DNA of 54,019 bases, counting the filler, from Catajapyx aquilonaris (Eukaryota): NCBI GenBank assembly GCA_000934665.2. It is 2 parts of 2 records of this genome, joined end to end, with 100 filler letters (N's around TTAATTAATTAA, not from the genome) between each part and the next. Parts side by side here need not be neighbours in the genome. Positions count along the whole stretch, not along the records: positions 23,440 to 54,019 come from KZ539401.1; 1 more part is not named here. The stretch is one strand, 5' to 3'. Shown piece after piece: positions 8,136 to 54,019 of this stretch (position 1 is the first letter of the stretch; every line of letters starts with the position of its first letter). The notes beneath the pieces were generated by a model. The model saw only the letters and a list, made by a program, of their open reading frames with translations, made no database searches and was not told the origin of the DNA. Made by a program: the position numbers and the translations under genes.

Positions 8136-8211
8136 CGCTGAACGAATGATTTTTGAACGTCGAAATGGTTTCCAAAAGTCCACTGCGTACGGTATATCTT
8201 GTAATGAGGTT

Positions 8212-8515: not shown

Positions 8516-8518
8516 AAC

Positions 8519-23163: not shown

Positions 23164-23339
23164 ATGGAAGCAATGCGTGTAGCAGTTGTTGCTCTCTGTG
23201 CAGTGGCCTCTCTAGCATACGCTCAAGTCCACATGTCATCTCCATCTGTTGGGTCGGAAGAGGAAGAGCTGGTGGCCTCCCTGGTGGAAGATGTCCGTGG
23301 TTCGAGACCCGAGTGTCTCCTGGTGTTGTGCGGCGACTG
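23164..23339 (+). CDS. 5' end of a second IR paralog, truncated by the assembly gap
   Basis: MEAMRVAVVALCAVASLAYAQV..., near-identical to the ORF at 10530. Confidence 0.88.
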
Positions 23340-24362: not shown

Positions 24363-26059
24363 TCAGAGTTCAATATTGACTTCAACAGATCCATCATAAC
24401 CATTATCTTCAATCTTTTCTAGCCAAGCCACATAATCATCAGGAAGACCATTTTCCCTGGCCCCCTTAAGGATGACCTGTTTATACACAGCTGATGGCCG
24501 GTTGTCTTGATCCTGCCCTTGGTCCTTCACCAGCATCTTGTATGTCCTGGCAATAATCCCTTCCCCACTGGCTGTCTCCAGCTCCACTTCCAGAGGCTGG
24601 TAGATTCCTTTATGCACACCCTCCTGATTGTCCAGACATGGAAGGTCAGTGAAGCTCAGCTTCCAGACCACTCCCCACACGTCGGATCCTATCTGGGGAC
24701 GTATGGTGGCTACTGCACCCCTCCAACGGTTACCTGCATGACCAAAGTCCAGAATGTGGTCCTGGAAGCAGATTTGTGGTGAATGAATTGGAAATATGCA
24801 AGATTTCAAGCAGGTGCTTGTGGTATTCAAAGTAGTCAGAATAAATGATGATAAAATTAAATTATCTTATTTTCATCACTCTTTTTCATTTAGTAGTTCC
24901 TTTGTAGATTTTAAAAACTCGTTAGACCAAAGCAGCCCCCTGACACATCCAGCTTAGCCGTGTGTTGATGGTAGTTCAATATAAAAGCCTCTGCGGGGAA
25001 TTTGGCACTACAGCCCACCCACAGGAATCTACTGGGTGGTGGGTTCGGGTTGCCGCTTTCGCAACCAACCCAAACCGTCCTTTCCTCGGAGGACATTTGC
25101 AGGCTCGGTTTTGGATGGCTGGGAGGGCCAAATTCCCCGCATGGGGGATACTTGTATATTAAACAACGGTGTTGTATGTGTGTCGGGGCTGGATCAAAGT
25201 GTTGTAATGAGATGCTTTCTTTTAAATAAAAGAATCTTGCTGTTTAGTGCCTGAAACTGTAGCATTTAAACCACAATATTTTATGAGGTAATTCACCTTC
25301 TTAGTAATAGTAAGAGTTGTGTTATTCTTTTTCTTGGAATACATATGAAGATATCTACACAAGAATTATAGTGATTAGTGGAAACAGCAACACTAAAACT
25401 AGGTATATTAAGTTGTTGTTTTCCTAGTAATGAATGTTTAATGTTACCTTCTGAAAAGCTTTTTTTAATGGAGGCTGTAACTAATGGTGTTAGGGTAAAC
25501 ATGACGCATTTTTTCCCTACTTATAGCAGGACATGTGAAAATATAGGTTTGAAAACTGTGATTTCGCAATTTTTAAAAGCGGCACGAAACAGTTGCAATG
25601 TGCGGAGAGTTTCATTTTCATTTTTACAAAAAAAAATGCTAAGTAGCACTATTCGTAATAATATTGGGGGGCCTTGGGCGCACACTTGGTGTTTTGTTAT
25701 GATAATTTAGAGCGCGAAAAATATCCTTTAAAATACTTGGCAAGTCTGTGTAAAATTCAAGGCCAAATTCTGCTTCAATATTGCTTTCTGCCCACACAAT
25801 TGATTTTGATCTTTGTGGTTGAAGTTTATGAACGACTTTTTTTTTTTTAATGTAAGCAAAACTGACGTGGTCTGCTGCATTACAATTATTATTCCTCGAT
25901 ACCCTCAAGGACAAGTTTAATTCCTACCTTGAGTTTGGCCACCTTGTGCACGACGGCAGTGGGATTGTTGATGTGTATCCTGGAGGACAGCAGGTTGCTT
26001 CCGTATGCGAAGTAGAGGAAGGTGTCGCCGGCTCTCTTCATGGCCGATGACGGCTCCAT
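24363..26059 (-). CDS. GGCT: Gamma-glutamylcyclotransferase; exons 26059 (or 26041)-25928 and 24761-24363
   Basis: Exon 1 FLYFAYGSNL...INNPTA; phase-0 GT-AG intron; exon 2 WRGAVATI...VWGVVW...LDNQEGV...PSAVYKQVILKGARENGLP..Y. Confidence 0.92.
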
Positions 26060-30000: not shown

Positions 30001-31463
30001 CTATTCAAGCATGTAATTATTATGTTCCCCTTACACCACCAAGCGAACATTGTCGATTGAAGCAAAATAATGCTAAAAGAGTGATACGAAAGAGAGATAC
30101 GAATCACTGCACTGTTTCAAAAGTAAAGCGCGATTTTTTTCTCAAATTAATGCATCATTATTATTACCTGCACGACATTCATCACCATTCATTTCGATTA
30201 TTCAAAGTAGTCTACGTTAATCCAATTTCAGATGACTCATGTATTTTACTCTGTAATATTAATGCGAATTTTGTTAGAAATGGTAAAATATTATTTATGT
30301 TTACGCGCCCGCCGAGTCATTCCCAGCAGTTGCAAGTACTGTACTGGTAGTACATGATGTATGGTGTAAAAGGAAGACCCCTTGGTGTATGTGGCAGAAA
30401 TGACTAATATTCTTGTGGTTTTACGCCCAAAATACTGAAAACAATAGGAACTGACTTGTTTTTGCCATGGATGGAATTTATGCTTACTTATGTCTGCCAC
30501 TGCTCAAAATCATACCTTACAATACATTGCTTGAATTTTGGCCCAGGGAGAGTGCAATCAATCTATTTCCGTTTACCTTGCACGTCATGCCATTGAAAGA
30601 GACATCCCCTTCCCTTTAATATTAAATTAAAGATCTGAAACGACCAACAATCAGAATCACGCACAAGGAATGATTTAGAGATATGAGGGATTGAAGTTTG
30701 AAATCTGCATTACCCCTTTAGTATGGAATTGCCTCGGGAATTGGAAACATTTGCCATTACCCATGCAGAAAAAAAGAGTCGATCATCATTCATCATAATG
30801 ATTGTATAGGCTACTGTCTAAAGCTCTAGCCCAATTCTGACCAAGGTGTGACAGTTAATTCTGCTCTACCTTCATTTGTGTTATGCAGATTGGTTCTGCT
30901 ATCTATTGCAGATTGCACAAGTGACGTTACCATGCGAAAGAAACTCACCTTCGTGCTGTCCCATTGCTTTCCGTCCGAAATTTCAATTTCCCTTCACCCT
31001 GGAAAGGATTCAGGTGTTCCGGGTAGTCGTGGATGGACACTCTCCTCCGGGGTGGCACAGGAGGCGCCTGCTGTGCCTGTGTCTCGATCGGTGACTGCAC
31101 TGGCGACTGTGCAGGCGACGTCACTGTCTCTGAAATCAACAACGGAGGCCTCCTTCTAGGCCTGGGCAGCGGCTGCGGCTGCTTCTGGAAGCCGTCATCC
31201 ACGCACGAAACAGTGGACAAGTCATCCTTGGCGCCCATGTTAAAGTTGTTGATGTTGATGTAGAAGACGGTTCTTGGGGGCCTCCGGGGATGAGGCTGCG
31301 GTGGCGGCAACGTCGGAAGCACCACGAAGTTCTTCTTGCACTCGTGGGCAGGGTCCATCACAAGAGAAGCGCCGGCGCTGTCCATTGTCGCGGAGGCGGA
31401 GGAAGAGGAGGGGGATGATGATGCAGATGAAGGATGTGGAGAAGGAACGTAGAAGAGCGACAT
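27072..31463 (-). CDS. Uncharacterised low-complexity protein (~354 aa); exons 31463-30949, 27739-27483, 27425-27280, 27218-27072
   Basis: GT-AG introns with compatible phases (2, 1, 0) give one open frame. Motifs PPVPPRRR, YPEHLNPF, RKKRPAPKPP and C-terminal SDTDSDVYEEAREEA. Start codon uncertain. Confidence 0.7.
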
Positions 31464-31506
31464 CGGCTTCTTATCACGCCCCAGTGTGTAATGTGTGTGT
31501 GTGATG

Positions 31507-31530
31507 TGACGTCACCGCAGCCGGAAGTGG
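31507..31530. promoter_or_regulatory. CRE palindrome GTGACGTCAC and ETS-type CCGGAAGTG just upstream of the minus-strand gene
   Basis: Consensus matches about 45-65 bp upstream of ATG 31463. Confidence 0.45.
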
Positions 31531-33454: not shown

Positions 33455-36184
33455 CTACCCTGATGGACCATATCTACGGATGTTTCCACTTCGCAGCCGG
33501 GCAGCCAAAAGAGAAGCAGGGACAGTGATGATCCCACTGTCCTCTAGTTCTAAGTCTTCCTGGGTGGCTTTGAAGGTCCACAGGAGATACCGGTTCGCCA
33601 CGTCTTCAGCTGCAAAGGATAGCTAATGTATTGAAAGTCACACGGGTTCGGAATGAAATTACTGCTGGAACAGAGTGTTTCATAGTGATTTTAGACAAAC
33701 TCCTATATGCACTGGTTGTGGGGAAGTGTAGATGGCCGAGATGGTAACGTCTCGGCTTGCTGAGTGAAAGGCCCCAGGTTCGATCCCCACCTGGGGAACT
33801 TTCCTTTCACCTGCGTCAGGAGGGTCTCTGACCTGCACCAAGGAGGTGTCTGGCAACCTAACCTCCTGGGGAACAGCACGTGACCCATAGCTACGACATT
33901 GCACCTTGCACCCATGTTCCCTCCCCAAAAATCCCTATCCTTTCCCATTGTCCCTGTTTCCTTGCACCGGAGAATGAAGTGAAAATATATACAGAAAACT
34001 TATGGTGGTATGCCACCCCCCTATAGCACCCGTAAGGGTCATCACGGGGTAAACTAAATAAAAAATAAATAAAATAACTGGTTGTGAGACCTAATGACAT
34101 CTCTGCGTTAGTGATCCTCTGGCGCACAGTCGTTATAAATTATTATTACTAATTATCATAAAGAACTCCCATATACAGGATGGCACACTGTCCAAGTTCC
34201 TATGATTCAGGTGGCGTGAAGGAGGAAAGACTGTGGGTTGCTTACTCTAGCAACAATTTTAATGATTAGTAGTAATAGGCCTACTTGTAGCAACAACAGG
34301 GCAACATTTACCCACCGTGACCGTGAGAGTTTGGGGAAGACAACAACGAAAACGACGAAAACTTAAGGATACCCAGAGACCCATGCTATATTATTTTGTG
34401 CTTACGTATGTAAGGATCCACAGTCATCAAGGCGTTTCTCAGGTCTGACATGCCTACATTGGTGTCATCACTACCTTCTTCTGCGCTCTTCTGTTCTTCT
34501 GTGCCAGCCTTTGGAGGAGTTCCCTCTGAGACACCCATGGCCATGAAGAGTTCTCGAACATAGGAGTTTTGTTCGTCCCTTGCCTGCTGAGTCAGCTCCA
34601 TGAAGAATAAACCCATGTAACCTTCTTCTGTCGGATGGAACACCTTCTTCACCTGCATTTCTCCGCTTTCCCTTATGTTCAGATCACTGTCAAAGAATGA
34701 GTCAGTAATATATACTGAACACTACACTCGTGCTACACTCATTACTGTAAATAGACCATGTCGCTGAATACACAACAAACTGCTAACGAACCATCTGGCA
34801 GCATCCATTAAGGCCTGGATGGCGGGCTGCTTCTTCAGCTGGAACACCCTGGAGATGATCTGTTGCACCACGTCTTGCGTCAGGGTATAGCCTTCGTCGG
34901 GATGGTATATGCCCATTTCCGTAGCCTTTTTACGACAGGCTTCGTCAATCATGGCCATGTCGTCGAAGAGTGCGTGCACCACACCTTCCTCCAGGTGTCC
35001 GGTCAAGATCCCTCCGAACATGGCCAGCCTCTCGTCGTACCCCATCCTCTCGCTTGCCTCGGTCAAGCTGTAGGCCCACTCGGCTCGGATTCCAGCGATC
35101 GGGAACCTGCTGTTGAGGTACAGCTGCAAGAATTCGTCCAGAGGCTGTACCGGCTGGTTGTCGACGAACGACTCTCGTCGGCGCCTCCATATGTCATAGA
35201 CGGTGGTGGCCGCTTCCTTGCGGCTCAGGCGGCGGTTCTTCACATCACCGTCGTAGCGGAGGTACGGTGGAACACTTTCATCTGTGCCCTTGCCCCGGAA
35301 CTTGTCCGGACCCTGCTCGAACGAGGATCCGGTCAGCTCCTTGACCAGCAGGCCGACCTTTTGCTCGCTGTTCTTGCCTCGAGCCATTTGCAGCCAGTAA
35401 GCCATGCCGCCCTTAATAACTTCAGAGCATCTGTGGACAGTTGTCAGAAGCATCATCTTGCATTAATATAATAATGTATACGTAGTATTATTTTGTCTAT
35501 ATATAGATAACCACCAATGCATTGTTCTCCAATAAATGTGCACAGACCTGAGCCAATCCGGACGAGGTGTCGAGCTTCCTCGTAATGCTTTATTCTCCTT
35601 CTGTACTTCATACAACTCTTCCTGCAAGCACTCGCATTTCCCTGAAACCAATGTTACGAGCTCAGCATATTATGTTGCAGTGAGTTACAAAAGAGAAAAT
35701 ATTGGTGGCCAAATAAATCATCGGCCCAAGCATACCTATCACCTCTCTGAACTCTGTGTTCATTTTTTCGAACCTGTCGTCCACACTCGCGAAATCAGCT
35801 TTCAGTTGCTCCAGTTTAAGATTGGCAATGTCGAATTCTCGTCTAGGAATCACGTCGGTGTAAGTGGCTTTCATGAGAGCGAGCTCTTTTTGAAGTTCTT
35901 GCAGTTGGGTTCTGGAGAATTCAGACAAAATATGCTTCTGATGATATGTTTACAACTGATTACAACAGATTAAATTACCCAAGGTTGTATGTCAAAGAGA
36001 GCTAAAATAATTATTAGAATAAATTGGCCACAAGTCACATGTTGAAATCATTCTATTGTGACTATACAGTATACACTATCGTTCTATAATAATTGAGTGT
36101 TGATAATTTTGTAAATTATAAATCTAAGAACCTCACCCGCCCCCCCCCCCTAAAAGGGCTCTGTTCCCTCTAATGGGGTAAAGC

Positions 36185-36243
<59 letters not shown>

Positions 36244-37253
36244 TAATAATAATAATAAATATATATAAATAACTTAAATAAATCTAAGAACCAGGGAAGC
36301 AAGTGGACACAGAGTAATCGGCCGTAATCGGGTCTCACTTGGCTTTGTTCAACTGCATCCTTAGCAACACTGGATCTTCTTGCACTTCTCCAGATTCCGT
36401 CTTTGCCATAGTCTGCTTGGTCAGAGAACGCACTTGGCTTTTCAAGTCATTAACATCAACGATTAGTAATCGACGGGCGTCCTCTTCATCACGGAACTTG
36501 CCGTGTTCTTTGGATAACTCTCCTTGCACCTAAAACACATTGCTGCAGTGAATTTTTACTACATAATGACAGACTGTCTCCGCATGATATTGTAGAAGCC
36601 CTTTTTATGCAGGAGTTCAATAATCGACACAATTGCTCTCAACTGTCAGTCATCTGTACTGAATCCCAAAATAAAATCTAATTCATACAACCCTCACTGC
36701 GAGGCGTTATTATAGTTCATATACTTCACGGAATATACTACCTTTGCCAACGCCGCTTTTAGCACATCCTTTTCTTCATTAGTGGTGTCGAGCCTTCTCA
36801 GAAGTGTGAATTTTTCCATTTCAAGTTGAGTTATCATCGCAGCATCTGATCGGCGCAGTGTCCTGCACTTATTGTCAAATTCTTCTTCGGCTGCAGCGAG
36901 TAATCTCTGGCAATGGAGTTTAACAGTTACACTTGTGTCGATTTACACTTCAGTTGTACATCACTCATAATACAGTACACTGATTGTGAGTGTTTGTGGT
37001 GGTGGTAAAATGCATTTACCTTATTGGCCTCCAACGCTTTGATCCTCACATCTCGAAAATTAATCATTTCATCATAGTGCCTTTTGATGCCAGACAAAAG
37101 TGTCCGATACTCGGGACACTGGCGAATTATAGCTGAGAAGACTTCATTGACCACCTGTAAAAAAATTCATATTTCTAAATGTAACTAGTCCAGTCAGTAG
37201 GTACATGCAAAACGGGGGTTGCTTTGCAAAAGGTGATTGGGTAGAAGATTTTT

Positions 37254-37339
<86 letters not shown>

Positions 37340-39954
37340 NNNNNNNNNNNNNNNNNNNNNNNNNNNNNNNNNNNNNNNNNNNNNNNNNNNNNNNNNNNNN
37401 NNCCCCCCCCCCCCCCGAAATATCACAGAAGCGGCCCACTTTAGCGACTCTTCCACTATATAAAGTTTTAAAGATGTTTAAATGTCCTACAATTTTCATT
37501 CCCACACCGTTTTTGTAGTACGAATAGTAAACGCGCTACAGCTTCTTGATAATATTATATTGACAATTTTTCTCAACTGTGAGTGAATAACGCACATTCA
37601 TCTTGAACGTTTGATTGCAACCTTTATTTTCAGAAGGTTTCCCAACTTTTTATGTTCCCCCTACCCCCTCCCCTCCTTCCCACCAAACTCCTTTACCCCC
37701 TCCCGCCCTGGCTGAGTAAGTGTAACTGACTGAAATGATACCTTTTATCTTCTTCGAAGTCGTTTAGACGGTAGAAGATTTGCAGAAGCATCAGATTGCG
37801 AATGAATTAGTACATTGACCACCAATGTACGTAGTATGGCTTTACAGTAAATGGATACAAGATCAAAGTGTTCCTGGATGGAATGGATTCATGGAACAGG
37901 TGACAGCCTATGAGGAATATGACCGGATAATCTGCCTTCCATTCCTCAACAATCCTGCGTCTCAGTTCGACACCGTATACAATATTATAGGCTACACATC
38001 ACTTGTAATGGCATCAGAAAAATGCAAACAACTATAGGTAAACATACTCGTATGTGTTTCCTGACATTGATCAGCCGTTGTATCTGAAAGCAAGGGATAT
38101 TGTTGACAATGGCTATCCTGAGTTGAATAACGTCACTGTGAGACTTGGAGGTTTTCACCTTGCAATGTTACTCATGGGAGCCATTGGCACAATAATGGCT
38201 GACAGTGGTTTACGGCAACTGTTATGTACTGTATTATCAAAGCAGAGAACCGTGTAGAGAAAATTATGACCTGATACGCATACTCTCGAGCTGCGCGAGC
38301 ACATTACCGTATATTGATGCATTCCGTCTTAGCTTCTCTGGTGTGCGATACAGTTGAGGTTACTGATGGTGAGCGTTCTGAACTGGGCAACTGGTTGATT
38401 TGATTAACAATTATTGTGATCGAGCCATAATACCAAGATAATACTCACTACTCACAGCATACGCCAATAATGCCTGTCTGACGGGTATTGCTGCATTTAG
38501 ACAAGCCTTGCGCGTGCTCGAATGTAAGGGACCCACTGCAAAATTATGGGTTCAATACTTTCGTATGATAACACTCCTGGAACAGTTCATCGAGGCTGAG
38601 CGTACAGGCAACTGGAAGCTCTATCTTGACTCGAGCGTTACAGAAAAGCGTTACAGTCTATTATAACCGAGTCTGCTATAACCGACCGTATGTTACCTGT
38701 TCATTACGCTCTGCATGCCCCCGCCATGGGGCCCTTGGCGGGGCCCTGACTGTAGTGTAATCAGCAGGTAACATACTGTCGGTTATAGCGGACTCGGTTA
38801 TAATAGACTGTAGCGCTTTTCTGTAACGCTCGAGTTAGCCCCCCCATGGGGATCCGATTTTAGCCCTGTAACCCTGACTGTAACGGTTTTCCGTAACGCT
38901 CGAGTTAGCCTGCATCGCATGCCCCCTCATCGGATTTTAAAGACGTATCCACGTCAAAATAATACTGTATGTGGGACGCTTCTGATGCAAGAAATGAACA
39001 GCTAATGCCTGTGAAAGTGAAACATATCTATGCTAATCATTACATAATATGAATACAGTGTTAATCGTTATAACCTGCAATCTGTTGTCCAGCAGATGTT
39101 CTCTATGTACATCACCGGCGGCAGACTCAGGAGCGCATTTTAAGATCTCCCTTTCCATGTACATTTCTAACTCTTGCAGGAAAAAAGGTTTATGCTGCAG
39201 AAAACAAAGAATTAGGTAAGGCTACCATGGTTTACTATTAAGGGTTACAAGTTGGAGCCTTTCAGCTGTATCACCTGAGATAAAAACACTGATTGGTCCC
39301 TCCACAAAGGCTGGTTTTTTTCTGTAACAAATATGTCGAAAGGTTTTGCTGGAGTATATCTTTGTTCTTTGGCCTCCTCTGAAAGATTCACATGACATTG
39401 TCAACCATGAAAAAAGGACTATAGAAGTGAGGCTATAGGACTGGATAAACCATGGTGTTCAGTCCTACCTGCGGCAGTCTCAGCCAAATCTGCCTTTCTC
39501 CTGTCTAGTTTGGGCGTGGTGATGTGATATTTGACCGAACCAGTTGTCGAAGATGATAATTTGAGCATCACAGCACTGAAAATATAAATAACAACCACGT
39601 GATTTAGTCCCTGATTGTGGGTCATTTACAATACTCGGTTAATTTACTCGACAGCCATGCACAAGCGTTTGAGTGAGTGAAGAATGAAAAAAACTTCAAT
39701 TTAATTTGCTGGAATCTATATACTTCGTACCCACTTCAGTGCCGAATTTAGACCCATGAGAGTGAGCACTCACACAGGTTTTATCCATCCTTTTCTCAGT
39801 GAGCTGCAACCCCCCCCCCCCCTGCATAGGCACACTGAGATGATGTTGGTACTGTATAAGGTTAGATTGGAGATATTTACTTGTCACCACTAAATTGCGT
39901 GGCTTCTTCAGCTATGACTCCCTTCCCTAGAATTTTTTTCAGCTTTCTCGACAT
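33455..39954 (-). CDS. TSNAXIP1: Translin-associated factor X-interacting protein 1-like, multi-exon (about 11 exons; 5' exons tentative)
   Basis: Exon 37154-37020 VFSAIIRQCPEYRTLLSGIKRHYDEMI; coiled-coil exons at ~36.8, 36.4 and 35.8 kb; TPRPDW at ~35560; FRGKGTDESVPPYLRYDGDVKNRRLSRKE...IW; last exon 33609-33455 ends RLRSGNIRRYGPSG*. Putative start MSRKLKK at 39954. Confidence 0.85.
33715..33955 (+). mobile_element. tRNA-derived SINE in a TSNAXIP1 intron
   Basis: Pol III A box TGGCCGAGATGG (33733) and B box GGTTCGATCC (33777), followed by a tRNA-unrelated body. Ends approximate. Confidence 0.7.
36133..36277 (+). mobile_element. 5'-truncated non-LTR retroposon end with (TAA)n tail and 15-bp TSD
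   Basis: ATAAATCTAAGAACC at 36118-36132 and 36278-36292. The core CCCCTAAAAGGGCTCTG recurs at ~46310. Confidence 0.8.
37254..37339 (+). repeat. (TAG)n microsatellite running into an N gap
   Basis: Direct read. Confidence 0.97.
37825..38630 (+). pseudogene. Decayed DNA-transposon transposase fragment, Academ-like
   Basis: Across frames: GWNGFM, DQPLYLKA, VRLGGFH, DSGL, YSRAARAH, PTAKLWVQY...FIEAERTGNWKL. Several stops and shifts. Superfamily assigned from memory of the motifs. Confidence 0.62.
38629..38835. mobile_element. Foldback/MITE with ~80-bp TIRs; a second copy of the right end at ~38880-38910
   Basis: ACTCGAGCGTTACAGAAAAGCG...CGCTTTTCTGTAACGCTCGAGT. Confidence 0.85.
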
Positions 39955-41063
39955 AATGGCGAACGTCTTAGCGGACTCTCTGGCTACAAGACGGTCCCGT
40001 GCCTCGTTTCTGCAAATAGCAAAGACATTATAATCATTTATGGGGAATGTTGAAGTACAGCACTCCCTCTATACACCTTGAGCACTATACTAACCTTACT
40101 AACGATGTATATTAGCCAGATAGCCTTAGTTGCTCTTGCTTCTTAATAAACCTAAACTAACTGTGTATGACCATAATATAGGTCTGCAGTATTATTAATT
40201 TGCCGATCTTTAGTTTTTAAATGGATTCAGCTAAGCATAATATTTCTAAAAATATGCGAGGATGGTTTTTCCAGACCTTGCGAAAATTGGTCAAAATACG
40301 GTTTGCCAAGAATATTTACAGTTCAAATTGTAGCAATCATCACGAGTTACCAAGAGAATCACTGGTCTTACTAATGTATATTTTAATGGACATAATCTAG
40401 TACAATAAGAGTATTAAGAGATTTGCTTTTCATGAGTTGATGCAATATGCTGTGGTCTAAGTCTATAGCCCCTCACGTTAACACGTTGTTAAATACACTC
40501 ACTTCTGACGTGCCGTCGACATTTTTGCTGACAGTGGAACGTATCCTTGGGTAAAAGACGAGGGCTTGAAGAGGGCTGTAAATGTGTCCTAAAATTGAGT
40601 CGCTACACCGTTCCAACTTCTTCCAAGCCTCGGACTGTTTACATTTTTTTATTTTTTATTGTTGAATTAGTTGCACTGGTTGCACTGTTGCAGGTTTTAA
40701 TTTCGTCAGTCGATTGTTTACGTTATATATTCGCCAGCTAGCTGTGTCTAGTCTACCACTTGTCGTGGGTCTAACTACCACTATGCCAACAAATTACATG
40801 AGGTTAACAATTCATAAGCCCAGACCAGATTTTGCGCACGTCTCACTCGGTACGATTGGCATTAGACGTCAAGAGCCGAGCCCACTATTTTCAGGCCATA
40901 CCCCCAGCAGAGGTCAAGAAGGATGCTGTTCATTCAACCTAATAGTTGAAGTCATTGTTAGAAGTTCTCAATAATAAGCAGCCACTGCCAGAATATCGAT
41001 GCCAATTACTACGTCTTGACGATATTAATTAATAAATTCACTGAATCATGACATTTCACTATA

Positions 41064-41145
41064 CAGGGTGTTCCAACTTTCTGCTGTTTTTGGAATTTCT
41101 CTCAACTCTGTTATTTTTGTTTTATTACGAAATAGGAACACCCTG
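41064..41145. mobile_element. Minimal Tc1/mariner-type MITE remnant
   Basis: ta|CAGGGTGTTCC...GGAACACCCTG|tg; 11-bp TIR. Confidence 0.55.
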
Positions 41146-41428
41146 TGATGTTCAAAATTGGCGCCGATTGAAACACCTGCCATCAACAATGTTCCCTGAG
41201 GCGCCATCTGTGTTCCGCAAGTCCAATCTCCTGTTGGCGCCACTGTCCAAACTCTCTTCTCCTCCTCTCCCCTGCGCCCCCTGCCTCTCCCTTCCAATCC
41301 CTCCCGCTGACGTCATCATCCGGGTGCCTCTGCTGTTTCCACCTCCCCCTTTTTTCACCCCCCCCCCNCCCCCCCCCTCCTTCCATTCCCTTCCCTCCCC
41401 TCCTCCTGCTTCTGCTCCTCAGTTAAAA

Positions 41429-41624
41429 ATGGCCGTCGCCAATGGTGGTGGTAGTGCAGCGATGGAGTGTCCGAGCCCAGGCCCAAGCCAGGCCTCGGAC
41501 CGACTCAAGCTGCTCTACCCTATGGTCAACGAGGTGGAGACCCCGCTGCCTAGGTGCTGGAGCTCCAAGGACAAGTACAATTTCATCGGACTCTCGCAGA
41601 ATAATCTACGAGTCCACTACAAAG
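41429..41624 (+). CDS. RANBP9/10: Exon 1 of Ran-binding protein 9/10 (RanBPM, CTLH/GID complex); later exons not found in the window
   Basis: [43 protein letters not shown] followed by the donor AAAG|GTACAG (phase 1). Matches the conserved pre-SPRY segment of RanBP9/10. Confidence 0.93.
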
Positions 41625-44010
41625 GTACAGTGGAAAAAAAAGAGGGGCTGCATTGGGACGAGAGAGAAAGGGGAGGGGAGGTGGGAGGTAGTATGGGAGG
41701 GGTGTGCTGTAGAGAGAGGTGATGTGGGGTGAGGGAGGGGGGGGGGGGAAGGAGGATTTCTTTCAAGGCCAGTCCTTTGTCATCAGCTGATTTCTACACC
41801 CGTGGGCCGACCTGGGGTCACTCTAACCTAATGTGATGAGACAAAGGGAATGGGGCCAAGACGCAATTTTTTGGTGGGAGGGGGGCAGGAGGAGCATTGT
41901 TGTCATGCAACGCAGGGTCAAAGGGCAGCGGTGGTCATCACCGCATAATTGATCAGTCCGAAGGGATGTGTTACTCCGCTGCCAGTTGCGCCATTCAATA
42001 ATGTCATCCTGCGTCAAAAAGCGGGATTTAAGATGTGCCTAATAAGCTGTGCGATGTTGTCGTTTTAATTTTGAAAGCACAGACTGCGTAGCACTTGGCA
42101 GGAAAAGTTCTGAATTCTTTAGCCCCCATGATATTATCCTTTGGCAAAATGCAGTGCAAATGGATGCAGAGGAAGTTTGGCAAAACAGTTTCATTCCTAC
42201 CAGATGATTTTCAGTTCGTACGTGTTCGGTACGGAATTTGTTCATGGAACTCTGTGACTCCCATATAGACAGGTTTTACTGTGCTGGTATAAAACAGTTG
42301 ATATCATTCAAATGAGTGAAATGGTGTTAGATTTAGGAGTGAAGCGCTGACAACAAGGAACACCTGATCATGAATTCTGCACAAAGTGAAATTATCGTGA
42401 GCCTGTCATGCAATCGTTGCTTGCAGTGTTGCAAGGTGATTGGCAAGTGTTCATGCCATCAATTTTGGAAGAGGTGTAACACCAAGTAGAAAGTGAATAA
42501 TGACATGTTGGGGGGACAAAATGGCCACCATTTTAAATAGCAAGGAAGTCTTGTCATGTGTGCAGTAAGCCATATTCCACCTAGGACATGAATTTGAGCT
42601 GGAAGGGGGGGGGGGGNGGGGGGGTGGATTTCAGTATATATGTAGGAGCTAAACATTCCCTTTGACCTTATGTGGTCCACATTACTTTGAGATTGAAAAT
42701 ACATCACTATTTCAAGCCACAAATGCAAGTTATTTGAGCTGTTTGTCTTTGAGGCCATTCATTGCTAAAGAAGTTATCAGGAACTTGATGCAGATGCACA
42801 TTCCTTGGTGCCAGTTTCAATAAAAATATACTTGGAATTTGGTGCGATATTTTCCACGAAGTGGAGTCATGCTCCCACCAGCACCTTTGTCTAGGCAGAC
42901 AGCATGACACATCACAGCTGGAGATAATGAGGACAAAGCCCTTGTTTGTAATGAAAGAGTTGCAGCAACAGTGTAATTATGAGTCTATACCCTGCCCTTT
43001 TGCTTCAAGCAGACAAATACTCATCATGCAATCATATTTAAAGTTGACTTCTAGATGATTACTGCATCATGTGACTCCGGATAATAATATGTGGCTATCA
43101 GAAAATTATGCGTGGCATGCAATGTTTGGGTATGAACACAGATGTAGAATGTGCTTATTTCAACTGCACAACATTGCTGTGTACTTGGTTGTGCAACAGT
43201 GCACTGATGAACATACACATTCTGAGTGCAATGGAAAGATCGGTTAAGTGCATAGCAACAATGTGTTGTAACATAAGTTCAATAATTGTTAACATGGTCA
43301 TGTTATTGGATGAGTTTTTCTATGCAAATGCACAAACGTTGGCAATTTGGATTGTGAGCAATGAATTATCACCAAACTGTGACTCAAAATCTACATTTTG
43401 TGAGTAAGCTTGTACTCATTTTCAATCATGTCAACATAGCAATGTTGTGTTACAGTAAGAGCTTCAAACATGCTCATTGCTGAGAGCTGCTTCTATTACT
43501 CCACGTAAGGAACTATGCCAGGATAGATTATGTAAATTCTCCAGGGTATTAAGGTTTGTCAAGGTGCAGGAAGGGACTAATAATAACTAGCATTAATGCT
43601 GAAATCATGTGACATTAAAATATCATTTGGTGAGTGAGGGATGAGAAATATAATAAGTGTTGAGTTGGTGGAATGGCCTTTAGAAGAACAAAGAGGTTGG
43701 AAATGCACATGCCATGTGTGGGCCTACATGCAGCATGTAGGCGGCCCAGCCTGTTTGGAAGGACATAGTAGAGAGGTCATAAGTAAACAATGCGTAGTAG
43801 GGCTGAAGGGCTTGAAATATGGCAGGTTATTGTGGAAAAAGTGTTTGCAGTGGTTATGAAGTGTTCAAGTGTGTAGCTGTAATGTCGGAAACAGTTTAAT
43901 TACTTGTCACTGTGGGTGGATGTCACACCAGGGGTTCACCTGCAGTGGTCTTGTACTACAGTTTACCTTCAATGATACATGCATTTTTACGTTGATGAAT
44001 TTATGATATA

Positions 44011-44040
44011 CTAGCAGGTTACCCGGTGTTGCCCGGGTAT
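44011..44040 (-). mobile_element. Helitron-type 3' terminus
   Basis: Minus strand ACCCGGGCAACACCGGGT hairpin, short spacer, then CTAG|T. 5' end not located. Confidence 0.6.
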
Positions 44041-47000
44041 GTTATGGTGGTAGGCCTATATACATTAGTAACAATGTAGTTATGATGGAGATGTCATATA
44101 ACCCAGCTAGGCAGTAGTGCAAAAATTGGAATTGTAGAAGTTAGACACCGGTACATGTACAACTGGGGTCTTATATTACTTGCAAGCATTAATGCATAGC
44201 AACTGGTTGTGATGTAATGATTATAAAGTGAACAAAGAGAGAGAGTGGAGGGATTATGGTGCTTTTTTCTCTTCTTGTCCTGCTGTGACTTGTCCCCAGC
44301 CCAAAATCAATAAGAGAACCTGACACTACTACTTAACTGCATACAAGTTGTATTTGGAGCTTAGATATTGTGAGCATTTTGGCAAGCCCAGCAGTACTTG
44401 AAAGGACATTGAGGAGTTAAGAGAGCTGAAACCTAATGGTTGGAGCAGAATTGTGCACTTTGATCCAAGGCTGTAGATGTATAATCATGATATACTGAGT
44501 GGATCTTGGAAGGTGAAGCTGATGTATGCATCCAGTTGCATCACATTTGTGGAAACAGGATAATCTATATCATGATGGTGGCCTGACTCAATATTCATGT
44601 CCCTTCAGGTCACTGCAATGACCAAAGTACTAAATGGTATGTGAAAATGATTGACACTGGTATGAACTAGTGGGATCTATCATACTAACATTTTCCTTGA
44701 GGAAGTTCATTGCTTGAGGCAGGAAAAGTTAGATGAAATATTGAAATGTTGCTAGCAATTGGTGAAGTCATGTAACTTGAAAAACTGGGTGTGGCTTCCA
44801 GAAGCTTTAATATATTAATCTGGAACATGTTTAGCAGATTGAGTCAAATCCTAGGAGTTGCTAATAACTAAAATTATTACAGTAATGTACTTCAGGTAGA
44901 ATAATATGCTCTGTAGTTACTGTACTATGTGTTGCTGTGCCCAAGTTATAGTTAGAAGAGAGAGGAAGGGGGAAAGTTGATTGATTAGTTATTCATGTGC
45001 TGAAGTTGAACTCCAGTCCAATCTTGACACAAGGTTAGGGTCTTTGCATATGCACAACACATATGCACAGCATGGGAAGTGCACTATTCTCTCCTGTTCC
45101 TTAGTTTGGATCATGAACTTGGATATAGAGAAAAACTCTGTCTAGTTGCTTTCACATGAGTGTCATGTCACAGATACCACCAGAAAATATTTTGCCTTGT
45201 GGTATTGAATTTTTTATTTATTTTAGAAGAGCTGTTCACACAAGAAGACTACTATCTGTGTAGCATATTGTTATTCCAAACTCATGACAGTAATGTTGTG
45301 GTGAAAGTAGACTGACTTGTGAGAGACCAAGAGATGGCCACTAGAATCATATAGGTTACTTCTGCAGAGTTTCAATATCAAGTCACCACTGACAGGAGAA
45401 GTTTTTCAGTTACATTTACATACACTCAATGTTGAATAAAAAGTAACAACATTTATGCAATGCCATTAGTACGTGCTCATTAGTACTTGATAAGTATCTG
45501 TTGTATGAGTAACTCTCCAGATTAACGACCAAGTGATTGAGGAGAGATAATTTCAAAGCTACAACTGACACAACTGGAGCGTGTCTAATTTATGTGGCCT
45601 GTAGTATCATTCTGATCACTGGAAAAGCAGGAGCATGACTCTCATCCATCAATATTAATTCACATTGACATTGTACGTCCCAAGTTGATACATGGGCCTT
45701 TTGGCCTGTATTGATCACTCTTTCCCCATAGCTTTAGGATGTAGTAATGATAATGTTAGTTGTGTTAGGGGTGGGGAAAGGAATGGGAGTAGGGGGCAGA
45801 AGAAGTGAGATGTGGTGCACATTTAGAAAATGATTTTTCTCATCTTATGAATAATTGGTATTGTATATCCCAAAAGCCAGCTCATATTTGCATGAGATCA
45901 ATGCCACAGTATAACGTCTTGACTCAAGTGGATGTCTAGGATAAGAGTCATGAAAATTGCATCCACACATGTGCAGTCCACCTCACTTTTGACTCGAGAT
46001 GCCACCTTCAAAAAGGTGCTATGCATTGTTTCTCCTTATAAGAGTATGAAATGAATTTCAAGGCATGCAACACACTGCAATGAGCAGTGTGTACTGCAAT
46101 AATGCACTGAGGAAGGAGTGGTGGTGAGAAAGAGGACAGATGTTGACCATCCAAGTATAATGGTATATAATACTTTCCGCTTTTCACCTGACATGCCGGG
46201 GCAGAATTGCACTCCCTACTCTGCCCAGGGCCAGGAGAAAATGTCTGGTGTATTTAAGAAAGTCAGAAATGACTCTCATTAGTGTCCTTTCTGGGAACCT
46301 CCCCCTTCCCCCCTAAAAGGGCTCTGCCCTATCACAGGGTAAAATATGTTTTGTTTTTTTTTAAATTTAAAAAAGGTGTATAATACAGAAATGATCCCTT
46401 CCAGGACGTTTCTTCTTGCATCTTATTTTCTAGTGATGGTTTGTTCCTAATAGTAACATAAAAATGTGGAGCCTCCTTTTGTTTCTATTTCTATTGACAG
46501 TCTGTTTCATGAAAATTTTGGTTTGTAAATTGTAATTGTTGCCATTTTCCCAACTCTCAGGTTTTCACCAGTAATATACAGGGTGTGTTAAAAAAATTCT
46601 ATGACCATGGCAGATAGTGCCAAATTATTATTATTATTATTTTGGGAGTGGGGAGTGGGGGGGGGGGGGNGGGGGCATATTATTCACTAAGGGCCCTTTG
46701 TAATTTGTATCACTTCAAATTATGAGAATCTTTGGTTGTATGTTGTGAAATCCTACATGTAATAAGAGATGTTCCCGAAATCATCATTCATACCACCTGC
46801 CCTCTTAAACCATTAATGTAATGATGATTGCACACACATGGTTGTAAATGTATTATTACTTCAAATCCTCATAATTATGCAAAATAGAGTGGACAAGTAC
46901 ATATATTTATCACGTTTTTGAATTGCCAAAGCAGCCGTTGTTGACAACCAAGAACCAACCACATGTTGTTACCGCACGCTACCTATTGGCCCCCGGTCAT

Positions 47001-47266
47001 TGTTCCCTGGATGTATTGTTACCATGACGCCTCCGATTGGCCCCTATTCCGAGCATACGCAATGGGTGGAAGAACGCCACAGTGGCTTGCTGGACGTCAA
47101 CGAGGACACATAGCCTGTGGAGTCGGTCCACAGAGCAATACTTTTAGGGTCAGGTTCGGGCGGACACTTTTCTGAACCAACCTAAACAATCCCACCATCC
47201 TTTCCAATGCAGCTGGGTCAGTAGAGTAATTTCCAGAGCCCAACACTGGTGTGGCAAAGTTTAGTG

Positions 47267-47529
47267 CAGTGGTTCCCAACCTGTGGGTCGTTGCAACCCC
47301 GTTGGGCCTTGGGGGTAGCAAAGCGTTTTCCGGGGGGTCGGGCGGTGGTTGTGGTAATTTTTACTTGCAATAAATTTTATAGGAAATTTCACCACAAAGG
47401 TTTTTAAATGTTTTAATATGCGTACAATACATTAATCTTATAATTCTCGGGGTGAGGGGGGTTGGGGTCGCAGGTCACTTGACTTCCATAAAAGGGTTGT
47501 CGTGACCCGAAAATGGTTGGGAACCACTG
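47267..47529. mobile_element. hAT (Charlie-like) MITE
   Basis: 15-bp TIR CAGTGGTTCCCAACC and perfect 8-bp TSD GTTTAGTG (47259-47266, 47530-47537). Confidence 0.93.
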
Positions 47530-50500
47530 GTTTAGTGCTTCAAATGGGTGGCTGGAAAGTTTTCGCAACAGGCACATAATTTCATGGGAAATAGTGCGTG
47601 GCTATGCAAGTGTCATGAATCTCTAAGTAGAATATTGAAAGAAGCTGCTGGAAAGCATTTGTTTGGGGTATTCCAAAGAGAACATTTTCAACTGCAAATG
47701 AAACTGCCTCCCTTATTTTTAAGATGTGCTGTATACCAGATAAAACCGTAGGCTATAGGGCAAAACATACCCACAAAAATGCTACTGTATGGACTGGTTT
47801 TGCACCATTTTGAGGTCAGGTGCTTATTTTTTCTCCCCATTTTCCTCTCTTTCTCATCAGCAAAAAATATCAGTAGGCCTAATGTCCTTCATCTGATAAT
47901 AAAGAGGAAACCTATCCATTACGGAAAAACTTTAGGGTCCCGTGCGAGTCTGCAATGCACAGGTTTCACTGCATATGCGTTGATTCCTCTAACCAAGGCA
48001 TTATTGGTCTCCTCAGAGGTAATGGAAAAACTTTTGCTTATTGTTTTCAAATTCTACACACAGGCCTACTACACAATGTCCCATTTGCATATGGACGAAG
48101 TTTATAAAGTGTATTTCATTCTTGCATACCATACCTCTACCACCACAACTCACCCGGGCAACACAGGGTTACTTGCAAGTTATTGTGGCTTTGCCAAGCT
48201 TCAATCGTATGCAAGTGTCACTCCATCCCAACGACCGCAGCAAACTGCGGCGAATGGAATATGCAATGGGGGCGAATATTGTCTGGGAGCGAAAGCTCCG
48301 AGAGGCATACTGCATATTATGCAGGTGGTAGAAACCTCTCTCTAATATATGAAACCCTGTGTGAAGAAGGGGTCCCCTGCTAGTGGATGTTAAATCTGAA
48401 ACGTAGTGTGATTACAGCATTTTCATAAATTATTGGTTTAAGTGAGAAATATGCTACTTTGAAAATTTTGGGCATTACTTGCCACCGATTAACGTTATTC
48501 CTAAGTTTTGCTTTTGATGCCCATACTATTATAGGAACAACCTCCACTAAAAATTACTGAGATGCTACAGTAAATCGAACCTGAATGGCTCCTTCACTAT
48601 AATATCGCTACTCGTGTTGCAAATCATATTCTCCTGTAAATTGATAAAACTGCATATGCTCATTTAGGTTGATATACTGGAGATTTGCATGTGCTGTATT
48701 ATTGAAAAATCCACATGATGGGCAGTCTAATGGTGTGTAAAATCCATATAAATCTCCAAATGCATATTGTAGTAGGTATTTACCATGAGAGGATTATTTA
48801 AATTGTTAATATTATACAGTACAGTTTAGATTCGCCCAACTCAGGCTGGATTATACAAGATGGAGATCTAAAAAGTTCTCATACTTTTGCTGAAATAATG
48901 TATTCTTCGCTCTTAATTCTAAGCAACTTTTCATGAGGAGAAAAAACTTGATTGATTGCCCAGCTATGACATGTTTATATAGTGTAGTAATACATTGTTA
49001 AAGCTGTTGCACAGGGTTCGGAGTACAGGGGTGTTATATCTTATGATATAGTTTTTGCGATTGTGTCTGTAGTCTGGACTGATCAGGATATTCTAATACT
49101 TTGGCAATATGTGATACACAAGGGATGCATATGGTCAAGGTAAATATAGGGTTTGCGACGGTGAAGTGAAATACTTAATTTGTTTTATCTCATGAACTTT
49201 CGCAGGTGGCTATTACATACAGTATTTAGGCAGATATGATTTATTTTCTGTGGCTCCTGTCACAGTCATTGGTATGAAATGGCCAGTGAAAGCATGGCAG
49301 GGTCAACCAGATTGCTTTCACAAGGCCTCGGATTCAGCTCACTCTATGGGCCTTGCTGGAGTGGGCCTTGCTGATTAGTACTTGAAAATTAACATCTTGC
49401 GAGACAATGCGTTAATTCCATTGGAAACCATCCTCACGCTTTCAGAGAACTTGGGCAGTAGCCAAGAAATTCCTTGGAATTCTTCTGATCAAGTTCCGAG
49501 AGAGGAAGTTGAGGGTAGTGTAACAAAGAGTGTGTTTCATGCAGAGCTGGGGAGTACACTGTAAGCATAATTAGATGGTCACGAGTGGTTTCTGCACTCT
49601 CAAGAACAATGGGTGATATTGCGACCTCAAAGGAGATGTATAAATTTTTAGAGGGAGATTTGTAGTATCGCGTGAATTGTTTGTCACATCTCCGTAAAGC
49701 TGAAGTGTACGGCTTTCTTCGCGCTACAGAGTACCTCTGCACTTGGTGTCATCACCATCAGGTGGAATGTCACCGCTGGTTTTTTAGTGCCAGACTGTTC
49801 TAATTAGAGATTAGGTAATGGAGACAGCGCCACGCCAACTGTAGTATATGAACGCTGACTTCTGCCATGCCCATTTCATTGAAATGTCATTCCCACTTTC
49901 TCCTGAAAGGACGTTTGTTTGTTTTTCACTTTCGTGATGACCTTACCTCCTGGCGAAGGAGGATTTTTGGAGTCATTTGCCAGGGTTGTCCTAAGTGGAA
50001 CAAATGAGAGGGGCGGTCCAGGGACAGGATGGTCCGGACTCGTCCGGAATGCATCTTCGATTTTATTCCGGGGCACAGGGAAGTCTTTACAGTGCATTGA
50101 GAGGGTGGGGTCAGGGAACTTGTCCAGGAAAATTAAGCTGAAATGTGCAATTCCATGAATCGTTAGGGATGAGACAGATTAACCATTGATATTTTACTTG
50201 CGTGTTTTTTGAGGAGGTAGTACAGCTCAATTTTAAATGTCGCCATACTCAAAGTGACAATTTTATCCTTCGTGGAAAGATGCAAGAAATGAGAAAAGAA
50301 ACGCAGCAGGCACGTGCTTATTATAGGGGGTGGGGTTAAAATGGGTGAGGGAGGTTGGGCCAGGCCCTCGACTATTAATAGTATGAGAGTTTAGTGTTCA
50401 GTCACTTGAGCAAGAGTGAGCTTTCGACATTGGAGGCTGCTTTTTTCTCGCTTTGAGCGGCTTGTTATCCAGCCTTCAATGAGGCCACAACGATCGTATT

Positions 50501-53111
50501 ATTAGTTGCAGCAGCATGCTCTCTCAAACGTTGTAAATATAAGTATTTTACTATAGGGGGGACCATTCATAATGCAATTACATGTTACGTCGACAGTTAT
50601 CTCAGCTTCCAAAGCTTGGGGGAAAAAATGTACGCCAATGCACGTCAGAGTTGGGAGGAGATTCTGCGAAACCCAGCATGAACAAAGGTGTTTTCGGAGG
50701 GCCGGGGTAATTGGCGGGCAAGTAACTCGTGCAATTTGGGGTGGTCACACGCCAATGACGTATTTTGGGAAACAAATATCGCATGAAAATTTCGCGTAGA
50801 ATGATGTTTGTGCTATTTGTCTGGCGGAGTTTCAAGTGCGTCAATGGGAGCAGGAGGGGTCAAGGGACTTGGGCTTGTTGGGAGGGTGGGGGGAATGGGG
50901 GTGGCTATAATTGCGTAATAATGTACTAGTCGAGACAGGGCTGGGTCAAAAGTAAGGCTTTCACATAGGGCAACATATGGCGTGTGACGTCCAGCACGAC
51001 AAGGGGCCTGTCGCTTCTGTTGCGCAAGGGAGTAATAATATTTAAGAGTCTTCTCACTCTACCTGAGTTATATGTATGCTATTAAACATAGGACGATATG
51101 TCAGCGTCCGTTACCCGTGTGGAGATGAATGACCCTTGCGCGTCAATAACAGCATGCAGCTGCAGTAGGTATTGTAGGTGAAATCGTGACCGGGTTATAG
51201 TTTTTACAAGACGGCAGACTTTTCACTCATTTCATGAAAAGTATGGGCACCGTTACAGTGCAAGGGTCAGACATCTGAATTATTAACGATTATACCGCCA
51301 GGCAATTTTTAATCGTCCAATCTGATGCTGTTGTCACGTAAATGGGCGGAGCATCCTGCTATAGATCCAGGTGGTGTGTTGCTAGAACATTTCTGCAATG
51401 TGCGCCGTATTGACAAACCCAGTTGAACGATTTTACACGGAGAAGATAAGATTGTGGGTTTAGTGTCCCAGAGGTCACGAGTGCTGCTCACTTATGCTCG
51501 TTTTACGCCGAAGTAAATAGAACCATAAATCTCGAATCAACCGGTTTCCAGAGTGGTACGAGTTGACGTGTTCATCGAGGCATCGTGGGGACATGGGAGG
51601 GCGACCGTCGTCGTTCCAAAAAGGAAATGGGGACCTGCACACCGCAGGGGATCTTGAGCTTAGCCTGCAATTTGCAGGATAATAAAGGTGCTTTATTTTT
51701 GGGTGTATTGGGAGGCCAGCACCTGCACTGGCCTTCCGTGGTTTGGTCCACCCACTGGCGAATGCAACGTGCGAATCGACTGGGAACGGGGCTCACCTCT
51801 AGCCAGACCTTGGGTGCACCAGCCACGGGGTTTTAAAAAACAACAACAAAAAATTAGAATGTGTAGTAAACACGGTAATGTGAAAATGCGGTTCGGGTCT
51901 GCAGTTTTCATTTTCCTTTTTGGAGGATGGAAAGCGATTGCGGAGAATGCGCAGAATGCAGTTTCATAACGTCCATCCGAGTGTGGCGGAGGGGTGTTTA
52001 GGTCCACTCTCTCTTTTTGCTCAAGTGCAGCCTTCACGCAATATTGGCCCCTCTGCAGCACAAAGTTTGCATCCGTTGATACGGGGAGGAAATGAACCTT
52101 GATCGCATTCGGGGCGTCATTGGCTGGATTGCGTGTGGCCGGGTTCTCACGGACCACATTCTTTTTATTTCTGGCTCCGGGTGGGCCACAAGTCAAAACT
52201 TTCCAGTGGCAGTTTTGGGAAATGGCAATCACAGGTTGACCAATATGGTGAACGTTGGGGCTGGTCACGGGGAGTCTGAAACTAGCGTTACGCCCGACAG
52301 AGTGCAGGAAGTGGTTATAAAACACATTTATTATACGTTAGGCTAACGAAAGCGGTAACCTATGCTGACTGAAAAATTTACATTATTATTACGTCACTGG
52401 TAATATCCGTCCTGTCTGCCTTCATCCGTGGTGCACCGTAGATGTATCTGTGGGGAAACGACTTGCAAATATTATTTCGTGTCGGGCAGGACTTGTTGCA
52501 ACAAGGTGTTCCTGTATGAGAGATCCGAGAGTTGTATTTTTACGAAAGTTATGCGAAAGTCATATGTAATGCCTTGGTGCATTTTCCTGGGGCATCTACT
52601 GCACCTTGTATATGACGTCACGCCCATTTTCGGATTTTTGTTGAACCTACTCTTTGCGTCAGTTTCCCCAAGTATACTGTACACCCTGTCTATACGTTGC
52701 AACGGGCAACAAATACTATTACATTGTGGTTCGGTGGTGTAGTGATAATAATCAGAATGATTACAGTTGGGCGTCGAAGAAATCCCCCACAAGGCCACAT
52801 CATAGGCCTACCACAGGTTATCCATTCATCAATGACTACCAACAATGAAAGCAGCAATTAAATCGTCAGCACCATTCGCTGGCTGACACAATAATATGGC
52901 CGTAACATTGGTAGGAGTATGATGTCAGAGTAACGGATTACAACGTGGCAAAGGGGGTGGTGGCGGGGGTGGTGTTTGGCTGATCACGTCACTCTCAAAT
53001 TTAGTAATGAATTCCAGGTACTCGAATATTTGTGACAACTTTAGTTTTAAATTTGATTGCGTGCCAGGGTAGACCCTTCCCCTGTAACCAAATTCGTAGA
53101 AAACTCAATTT

Positions 53112-53113
<2 letters not shown>

Positions 53114-53162
<49 letters not shown>
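53114..53162 (+). repeat. (GT)n microsatellite
   Basis: Direct read. Confidence 0.97.
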
Positions 53163-53163
<1 letters not shown>

Positions 53164-54019
53164 ATGGGAAAGGGGTGTGGGGTGTTCTGGCCCAGCGTGC
53201 ATGTGAGTGACGTGAGAGCAGAGGAGCCCCAAAACATGGTGACGTATTTAATGTTTACTGACCACTATCCAAAATTTTGATGTCGACGTGGCCAGGGCTT
53301 TCCCTCTGTCATGCAGCCTACCAAACCTTGAGCGTGATGCCAGAGTGGACCTGCCATACCTGTATGTCACGGTCTGTCACACCAAACTGCAAAACACGTG
53401 ACGTCAGTGGGATTCGCAGCAGCTGATCTGACATTTCCACAGATCCAGTCACGCCCAACCAAATGCAGGAAGGAGGATATGCAACCGAAAATAGCAACCA
53501 TTATATCCACGCTTTCTTCTCAGCGGATGATTCGCTGCGGAATACCACGCGGACAAGTGCCGTTTTGTTCGCAAGGTGCGATCAGCTGACCAAAGAGCCT
53601 TGCATTATTTGAAGCACGTGACCCGCCTGCAGTGCGGTTGTCGACCCTCCCAAGGCACGCAAATATAGCGGCCCCTGCAAACGGAGAGGACTGGGGAGAA
53701 GGGGGTATGGGAGAGGGAGAGAGAGGGAGAGAGAGAGAGAGACTACGGTTACAGCTCTGGTTGGGTTCATCACCCCGAGGGTCGCCTCGTTCGCCGATTT
53801 TCTTCCCTACACGCCATATTTGCCAAAATCTCTTTTTTCCCTCTCCACTAGACTCCCACCGTTTTTTGAGGGGGAGCCCCCGTCAATAGCACGTCAATAC
53901 AAGGGTGTCCAGTTGTCCCAGGTGTATAGGTGATGGGTCATTTGCTGCGATGATGTCACTGCAATTTGGGTCATACACATGTGTGTTTGTAGGATTGTAG
54001 TTATTGTTTTTTTGGAGCG

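Follow-up and report, generated by a model that had tools for sequence, protein, structure and literature searches.

The subject of this analysis is a 54,019-nt stretch of the genome of Catajapyx aquilonaris (assembly GCA_000934665.2; the whole stretch is hereafter called the window), in which a predicted TSNAXIP1 orthologue on the minus strand lies head-to-head with the start of a RanBP9/10 (RanBPM) gene on the plus strand. This head-to-head arrangement was very probably inherited from the protostome-deuterostome ancestor and has been lost repeatedly since: because the pair is common to vertebrates, an arthropod and a mollusc, ancestral inheritance followed by repeated loss is the simplest history. 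We infer that the losses occurred where TSNAXIP1 moved or disappeared. As for its present organization, we consider it probable, with some reserve, that we are dealing with an inherited divergent pair whose back-to-back promoters run separate programmes.

Identification of the two genes

As described in the first-pass annotation, the ATGs of the two genes (39954 and 41429) diverge and are 1,475 nt apart. The genes are non-paralogous and adjoin, and no gene was found between them: none of the seven intergenic frames, all of which were scanned, has a Pfam match, and the region 33000-54019 has no Rfam match. All gene models are sequence-based predictions, the genome searched comprises 286 Mb, and trees were built with FastTree with SH-like support values.

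The TSNAXIP1 model is a single open frame of 746 codons from the ATG to a stop codon ending at 33455, and all 11 of its introns are of the GT-AG type. Its exon 5 matches the Pfam TSNAXIP1_N signature (PF15739) with 31.1 bits for a cut-off of 27, and this is the sole match in the genome. A HMMER search of proteins with the largest exon yielded 317 matches, and among the best 10 of those, eight bear the name of TSNAXIP1 or of its domain, the names of the other two being uninformative; a word-indexed search with the same exon gave no match, and an ESM Atlas search returned unnamed protist clusters only. BLASTP aligned the model collinearly with TSNAXIP1 of the clam Tegillarca granosa over residues 97-743 (E 8e-94), and with the TSNAXIP1 protein of a vertebrate (Geotrypetes) as a genome query, the window gene was the sole match. 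In the trees it falls into a set of 47 rows together with all named animal sequences (support 100), and into a set of 12 rows together with named insects and crustaceans (support 95). The domain match, the reciprocal single match and the trees thus uphold the proposed identity of the minus-strand gene as a TSNAXIP1 orthologue, whose branch is nevertheless long, with 1.2-1.3 changes per column and 24-30% identity. Protein matches indicate that TSNAXIP1 is also present in cnidarians.

Introns 4 and 5 of the window gene coincide exactly with introns of the TSNAXIP1 gene found in a metagenome locus (L049, see below). Introns 6-9 (36741-35431) are displaced downstream from their counterparts in that single comparator by 9, 9, 11 and 15 nt, offsets that might possibly reflect intron sliding. 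Intron 4 contains broken transposon-like frames (37800-38950; no Pfam match in the three frames scanned) and a 209-nt self-complementary stretch at 38629-38835.

The 41429-41624 exon matched 318 RanBP9/10 proteins and has one match in the genome. Contig C9481 overlaps the end of the window by 279 nt at 99.3% identity, which gives a length of approximately 15.1 kb for intron 1. The exons for the SPRY (PF00622) and CTLH (PF10607) domains are found on contigs C9481 and C3743, whose join we infer from protein order. Judged by these matches, the window gene is the genome's single RanBP9/10 copy. Vertebrates have two paralogues, RanBP9 and RanBP10, according to the accessible part of PMC3797097, and the single gene of the window therefore corresponds to both. 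Judged by both the TSNAXIP1 and the RanBP9/10 trees, the source organism is an arthropod, with the caveat that a 17-residue piece of the window gene was read in the wrong frame in the RanBP9/10 tree.

Occurrence of the pair in other animals

The layout that the first-pass annotation gave for human is as listed in the rows of PMC1487180: on chromosome 16, TSNAXIP1 is on the plus strand and RANBP10 on the minus strand, with transcription start sites (TSSs) 422 nt apart. The same rows give 394 nt for mouse and list the chicken pair among the 'H2H Orthologs'. In the available part of a survey of 64 eukaryotes (PMC2871058), the pair appears for zebrafish, chicken, human and mouse only. The window shares with the vertebrate pair the same two families, their divergence and the absence of a gene between them; it differs in having a single RanBP9/10 gene and in its spacing, with 1,475 nt between ATGs vs 394-455 nt between mammalian TSSs. 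Bidirectional promoters are defined by a TSS distance below 1 kb, as found in human and mouse, and where the window stands depends on the lengths of its untranslated regions.

In Tegillarca granosa the two genes carry consecutive locus tags, KUTeg_018888 and KUTeg_018889 (KAJ8302492.1 and KAJ8302493.1), on a sequence of the same length. They adjoin; locus tags and accessions speak here to adjacency alone.

We then looked for the pair in metagenomes with a scan anchored on RanBP9/10 exon 1, in which 335 candidate stretches yielded 92 confirmed ones, of which 80 were kept. They form 43 groups at 88% identity, 23 of which are informative, with at least 800 nt upstream. A TSNAXIP1 profile run over the 80 stretches gave one convincing match, in L049, where 11 TSNAXIP1 exons lie on the strand opposite to RanBP9/10 and the ATGs are 417 nt apart. 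The L049 protein is 61% identical to that of Tegillarca and nearest to mollusc and flatworm sequences. A pattern for TSNAXIP1 exon 1 (Met, up to 16 residues, LPP[LIV] and a nearby GT) has minus-strand matches in L024, L039, L049 and L059, with the donor at the same nucleotide in each; as controls, it has one plus-strand match in 170,842 upstream bases and one match in 197,896 downstream bases. The ATGs are 625, 673 and 766 nt apart in L024, L039 and L059, respectively. The divergent pair is therefore found in 4 of the 23 informative groups, well supported in L049 and by exon 1 alone in the other three. Together with the Tegillarca adjacency and the vertebrate layout, these loci support the ancient microsynteny that had been proposed.

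For crustaceans, an alignment search for insect TSNAXIP1 gave 16 proteins, all from this group; Cherax, Portunus, Petrolisthes and Penaeus japonicus were dropped, their assemblies or species differing or their scaffolds being small. In Oratosquilla, both genes are on one 61.8-Mb sequence, with accessions 528 apart. In silk moths, a Bombyx mandarina protein model (P0277) fuses TSNAXIP1 to a homocysteine S-methyltransferase, which suggests a same-strand neighbour for TSNAXIP1 there. In a metagenome locus (L066:7590-9954), RanBP9/10 has a CCDC90/MCUR1-like gene as its head-to-head partner. Human RANBP9 and MCUR1 share one 200-kb region at 6p23 according to the accessible part of PMC11960549, and CCDC90/MCUR1 is thus possibly a second ancient neighbour of RanBP9/10.

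Intergenic region and promoter elements

The first-pass annotation had singled out a cAMP-response element (CRE) between the two start codons. The octamer TGACGTCA is indeed present at 41308-41315, 121 nt from the RanBP9/10 ATG and approximately 1.35 kb from that of TSNAXIP1, but it is not special by itself, since the window has 6 copies for 0.51 expected. None of the 52 upstream regions of other RanBP9/10 loci contains a full CRE. On both counts we rejected the CRE as a mark of the gene pair and retained it only within a composite element on the RanBP9/10 side, in which ATCCGGG follows it (Table 1). TGACGT-N4-ATCCGG, with identical spacing, occurs in the termite-like loci L021, L022, L023 and L026 and in one further insect-like locus, L035, and the 17-nt composite pattern has 4 occurrences in the 286 Mb. 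More generally, ATCCGG, which may be an ETS-type site, is found on the same strand as the RanBP9/10 match and no more than 250 nt upstream of it in 12 of 56 loci (four of the 12 being the related termite-like loci), vs none on the opposite strand and a background of 0.033 per 250 nt further upstream. The four metagenome loci with TSNAXIP1 all contain it.

As regards sequence conservation between the genes, the short, oriented ATCCGGG recurs, but the gaps of the window, L049 and L059 align no better than shuffled sequences. An overlapping ETS-CRE promoter motif is reportedly bound by GABPa and CREB. The composite element shares with it the fixed spacing of a CRE and a CCGGA-type core within a proximal promoter; its core, however, is CCGGAT vs CCGGAA, and the two spacings differ.

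X-box-like sites are found between the starts in L024, L039, L049 and L059, with scores of 10.6-13.9 bits against a background median of 5.0 and 95th percentile of 10.7 bits; the matrix was built from the same loci that it scores, each locus's own sites being left out when scored. The mouse Tsnaxip1 gene is a direct target of RFX1-3 (in the part of PMC7498320 available), and these four invertebrate loci are alike in this respect to the RFX/X-box ciliary promoters. The window differs from them: the best X-box score in its gap is 5.3 bits, about the background median. A relaxed X-box pattern does match at 40006-40020, but it has 35 matches in the window. Perfect 14-nt X-boxes were observed upstream of RanBP9/10 in six loci (L021:3590, L022:9906, L023:6929, L026:251, L035:587 and L067:225, the last of which resembles a fish RANBP10), and in the termite-like loci and L035 they are approximately 95 nt before the RanBP9/10 start. 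There was no TSNAXIP1 match within up to 10 kb of the RanBP9/10 loci with perfect X-boxes.

The gap in the window also contains a dispersed repeat and an inverted repeat, the latter resembling a small transposon remnant. Three of the seven GGCGCC words of the window cluster at 41160-41245, just upstream of the composite element; one of them resembles a CTCF-type site, and similar words occupy the same place in L035 and the termite-like loci.

Table 1. Coordinates of the TSNAXIP1-RanBP9/10 region in the window
Feature	Position	Strand	Remarks
TSNAXIP1 orthologue	33455..39954	-	12 coding exons, 746 aa, predicted from sequence
TSNAXIP1 exons 1-6	39954-39881, 39575-39469, 39378-39275, 39194-39075, 37154-37020, 36906-36742	-	
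TSNAXIP1 exons 7-12	36529-36339, 35911-35736, 35641-35548, 35430-34792, 34686-34406, 33609-33455	-	
Divergent intergenic region	39955..41428	.	1,474 nt, holds both 5' ends
Dispersed repeat, ~50 nt	40108..40160	.	28 other genomic matches, 81-93% identity
Inverted repeat	41063..41146	.	17-nt arms, 50 nt apart; no other copies found
Composite CRE (TGACGTCA) then ATCCGGG	41308..41324	+	RanBP9/10-proximal
RanBP9/10 (RanBPM) coding exon 1	41429..41624	+	65 codons, phase-1 GT donor
RanBP9/10 intron 1	41625..54019	+	~15.1 kb total, continues on contig C9481; strongly CpG-depleted 42.5-47 kb

Maintenance of the pair

The CpG profiles and expression data bear on how the two genes are used. In invertebrates, CpG depletion is usually a feature of broadly expressed, body-methylated genes. 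The CpG observed/expected ratio is 0.17 in the RanBP9/10 intron at 42501-47000 and ranges from 0.17 to 0.91 along that gene, and for TSNAXIP1 it is 0.77 in exons and 0.65 in introns, or 0.46 once the two largest introns are excluded. RanBP9/10 is thus CpG-depleted and TSNAXIP1 is not, which points to differing expression regimes. For the human pair, one data set in the rows of PMC1487180 gives an expression correlation of r = -0.17 (p = 0.17), two others are blank, and co-function is given as 'No'. Mouse Tsnaxip1 is testis-expressed and required for sperm head shape, according to the accessible part of PMC10304756.

The mechanism that we lean towards, as somewhat more likely than not, is that separate promoter modules are kept together by a short, site-rich gap. 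In the ancestor, TSNAXIP1 and a single, pre-duplication RanBP9/10 gene were very probably divergent already. Their two promoters would be packed back-to-back in one short open region and would run separate programmes. Broad expression of RanBP9/10 would be driven by a housekeeping-type module, consisting of the oriented ATCCGGG with a CRE or half-CRE in insect-like loci, and on the TSNAXIP1 side an RFX X-box would, in most relatives, drive expression in ciliated cells and sperm. With starts only a few hundred bases apart, most breaks between them would damage a promoter, so that the pair would persist, and the tissue-specific TSNAXIP1 may benefit from chromatin kept open by the constitutive RanBP9/10. 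The pair would thus be kept for a short gap full of needed sites rather than for making its products jointly. In the window, the gap is 1.47 kb long, contains a repeat and has no X-box, and the link therefore looks looser than in vertebrates.

Several observations weigh against an inherited pair with such promoters. Regarding inheritance, L024, L039 and L059 were identified by an exon 1 of 14-16 codons and carry no animal group label. When the 120 longest upstream frames of 15 loci were scanned with Pfam, a different upstream neighbour of RanBP9/10 was called in 7 of the 23 informative groups (RTRAF, a ThiF-family protein twice, CCDC90, CLPTM1, eIF3I and a C2H2 gene). The other 12 groups, among them the termite-like loci and a group of 23 loci that lacks a TSNAXIP1 match in 10 kb, have no neighbour call. 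In Eriocheir, Scylla and Procambarus, the two genes are on sequences of different lengths, which could reflect different assemblies. These seven groups and three decapods indicate that the pair has often been lost. Regarding the promoters, the X-box scores of the four loci are only near the 95th percentile of the background, and their weight is reduced by the origin of the matrix; sites of 13.4 and 10.0 bits also occur in L091 and L075, respectively, upstream of which no TSNAXIP1 was found. The X-boxes of the termite-like loci, which have no TSNAXIP1 match in 10 kb, do not fit an X-box directed purely at TSNAXIP1. The CpG signal, patchy along RanBP9/10, is an indirect proxy, and a single array data set is the source of the human correlation.

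True co-regulation, in which one bidirectional promoter with shared CREB/ETS-type and RFX factors would have been selected for co-expression in sperm or ciliated cells, appears unlikely, although the closeness of the ATGs or TSSs in both the vertebrates and the four metagenome loci, the perfect X-box close to the RanBP9/10 start in termite-like loci and L035, and the high-scoring X-box sites on the RanBP9/10 side of L024 and L059 all speak for it. The GID/CTLH complex is said to have been linked to cilia in one paper, and RanBPM to spermatogenesis in another. Similarly doubtful is the more specific proposal that the gap is a promoter, with an X-box and then the oriented ATCCGGG before the RanBP9/10 start, kept since early bilaterians and from which RFX acts bidirectionally. 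If this were true, RFX would raise a CTLH ubiquitin-ligase scaffold and TSNAXIP1 together in sperm and ciliated cells, and the X-box beside RanBP9/10 in termite-like loci would be a remnant of regulation of the ligase itself by RFX. The proposal of the first-pass annotation that one shared promoter couples the two genes functionally has only partial support: the CRE belongs to the RanBP9/10 side and is missing in full from the 52 other upstream regions, the window gap has no X-box, the CpG profiles contrast, the human correlation is not significant, the intergenic regions are unalignable beyond shuffles and the pair has often been lost.

Passive survival is a little less likely still. An ancestral but unconstrained pair could last in slowly rearranging genomes, a sub-kilobase gap being a small target for breakpoints, and the patchy distribution of the pair, the frequent head-to-head association of RanBP9/10 with other genes (RTRAF, ThiF-family, CCDC90 and CLPTM1) and the insertions tolerated in the window gap are consistent with this. 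However, orientation and short spacing are retained wherever they are visible, and in the available part of PMC3514665 pairwise microsynteny between human and other lineages is only about 1-5%, with a false discovery rate below 0.0002 for pairs found in four lineages. Chance juxtaposition in the arthropod and vertebrate lineages independently, or wrong orthology, for which the long branch of the window TSNAXIP1 might be invoked, is most improbable in view of the single-copy reciprocal matches, the two introns at identical positions and the five further invertebrate cases.

Relation to known gene pairs

The inherited divergent pair that we propose has counterparts among the 595 conserved ancestral microsyntenic pairs described in the accessible part of PMC3514665, which are mostly 5'-5' and often lost in single lineages. 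The likeness includes unrelated neighbours, presence in several bilaterian lineages, 5'-5' orientation, a short gap and lineage-specific losses. These pairs are defined by at most four genes between non-paralogous genes, and here there is none; they are also defined by occurrence in at least four major lineages, and here vertebrates, this arthropod and a bivalve are firm, to which L049, L024, L039 and L059 may add. Unlike for pairs of the HSPE1-HSPD1 type, strong co-expression is not seen for TSNAXIP1 and RanBP9/10. Neither of the two is a developmental regulator, and the pair is thus not a regulatory block.

TSNAXIP1-RanBP9/10 may possibly be tabulated already among the 595 pairs; the names of the two genes are absent from the main text of PMC3514665 as available. 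The pair is not mentioned in the text passages and supplement of PMC13508932 or in the supplement of PMC5560861, as far as these were accessible. Judged by titles and the beginnings of abstracts, the literature on TSNAXIP1 with RANBP10 contains no work on gene-order evolution; searches on TSNAXIP1 synteny found none, and those on RanBPM/RanBP10 synteny and evolution nothing related. Relative to published tables restricted to vertebrates, the invertebrate occurrence (the Tegillarca adjacency and the metagenome loci) is therefore new or possibly already tabulated.

A pair tabulated for vertebrates, in the tables that are readable, can thus be traced back to the protostome-deuterostome ancestor. 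It presents a series of states, tight with an X-box, widened without one, with an X-box but no detectable partner, and with a new partner, and this series permits a test of what preserves ancient head-to-head pairs, co-expression or merely the interlocking of their promoters. With the pattern known from ~600 pairs, the case is useful rather than surprising, and the conserved promoter elements are the part that most deserves follow-up.

Other features of the window

The first-pass annotation described the organism as an invertebrate bearing ionotropic and gustatory receptors. An ionotropic-receptor-like frame is present in the window (PF00060, 11536-12486), and the genome has at least 107 gustatory receptor matches (PF08395), but no gustatory receptor was found among the window frames scanned. 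The odorant-receptor family was not found in the genome, in which one weak match overlaps a gustatory receptor. The ionotropic-receptor-like gene is divergent and spread over two long frames (10512-12489, plus strand). A segmental duplication (8211-10705 and 19633-23339, ~90% identity) covers its start; the second copy ends close to a contig boundary, and two of the six CRE octamers sit in these copies.

Long open frames at 304-6700 (minus strand) resemble, by eye, the gag, pol and envelope-type proteins of a gypsy-like retroelement. At 30945-31511 (minus strand), a proline-rich 188-residue frame has an NPF motif, no Pfam match and a CRE octamer at 31507; we presume that it resembles EHBP1/MICAL-like proteins. 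Finally, a gamma-glutamylcyclotransferase (AIG2-like) exon lies at 24363-24866 (minus strand) within a CpG-depleted patch.

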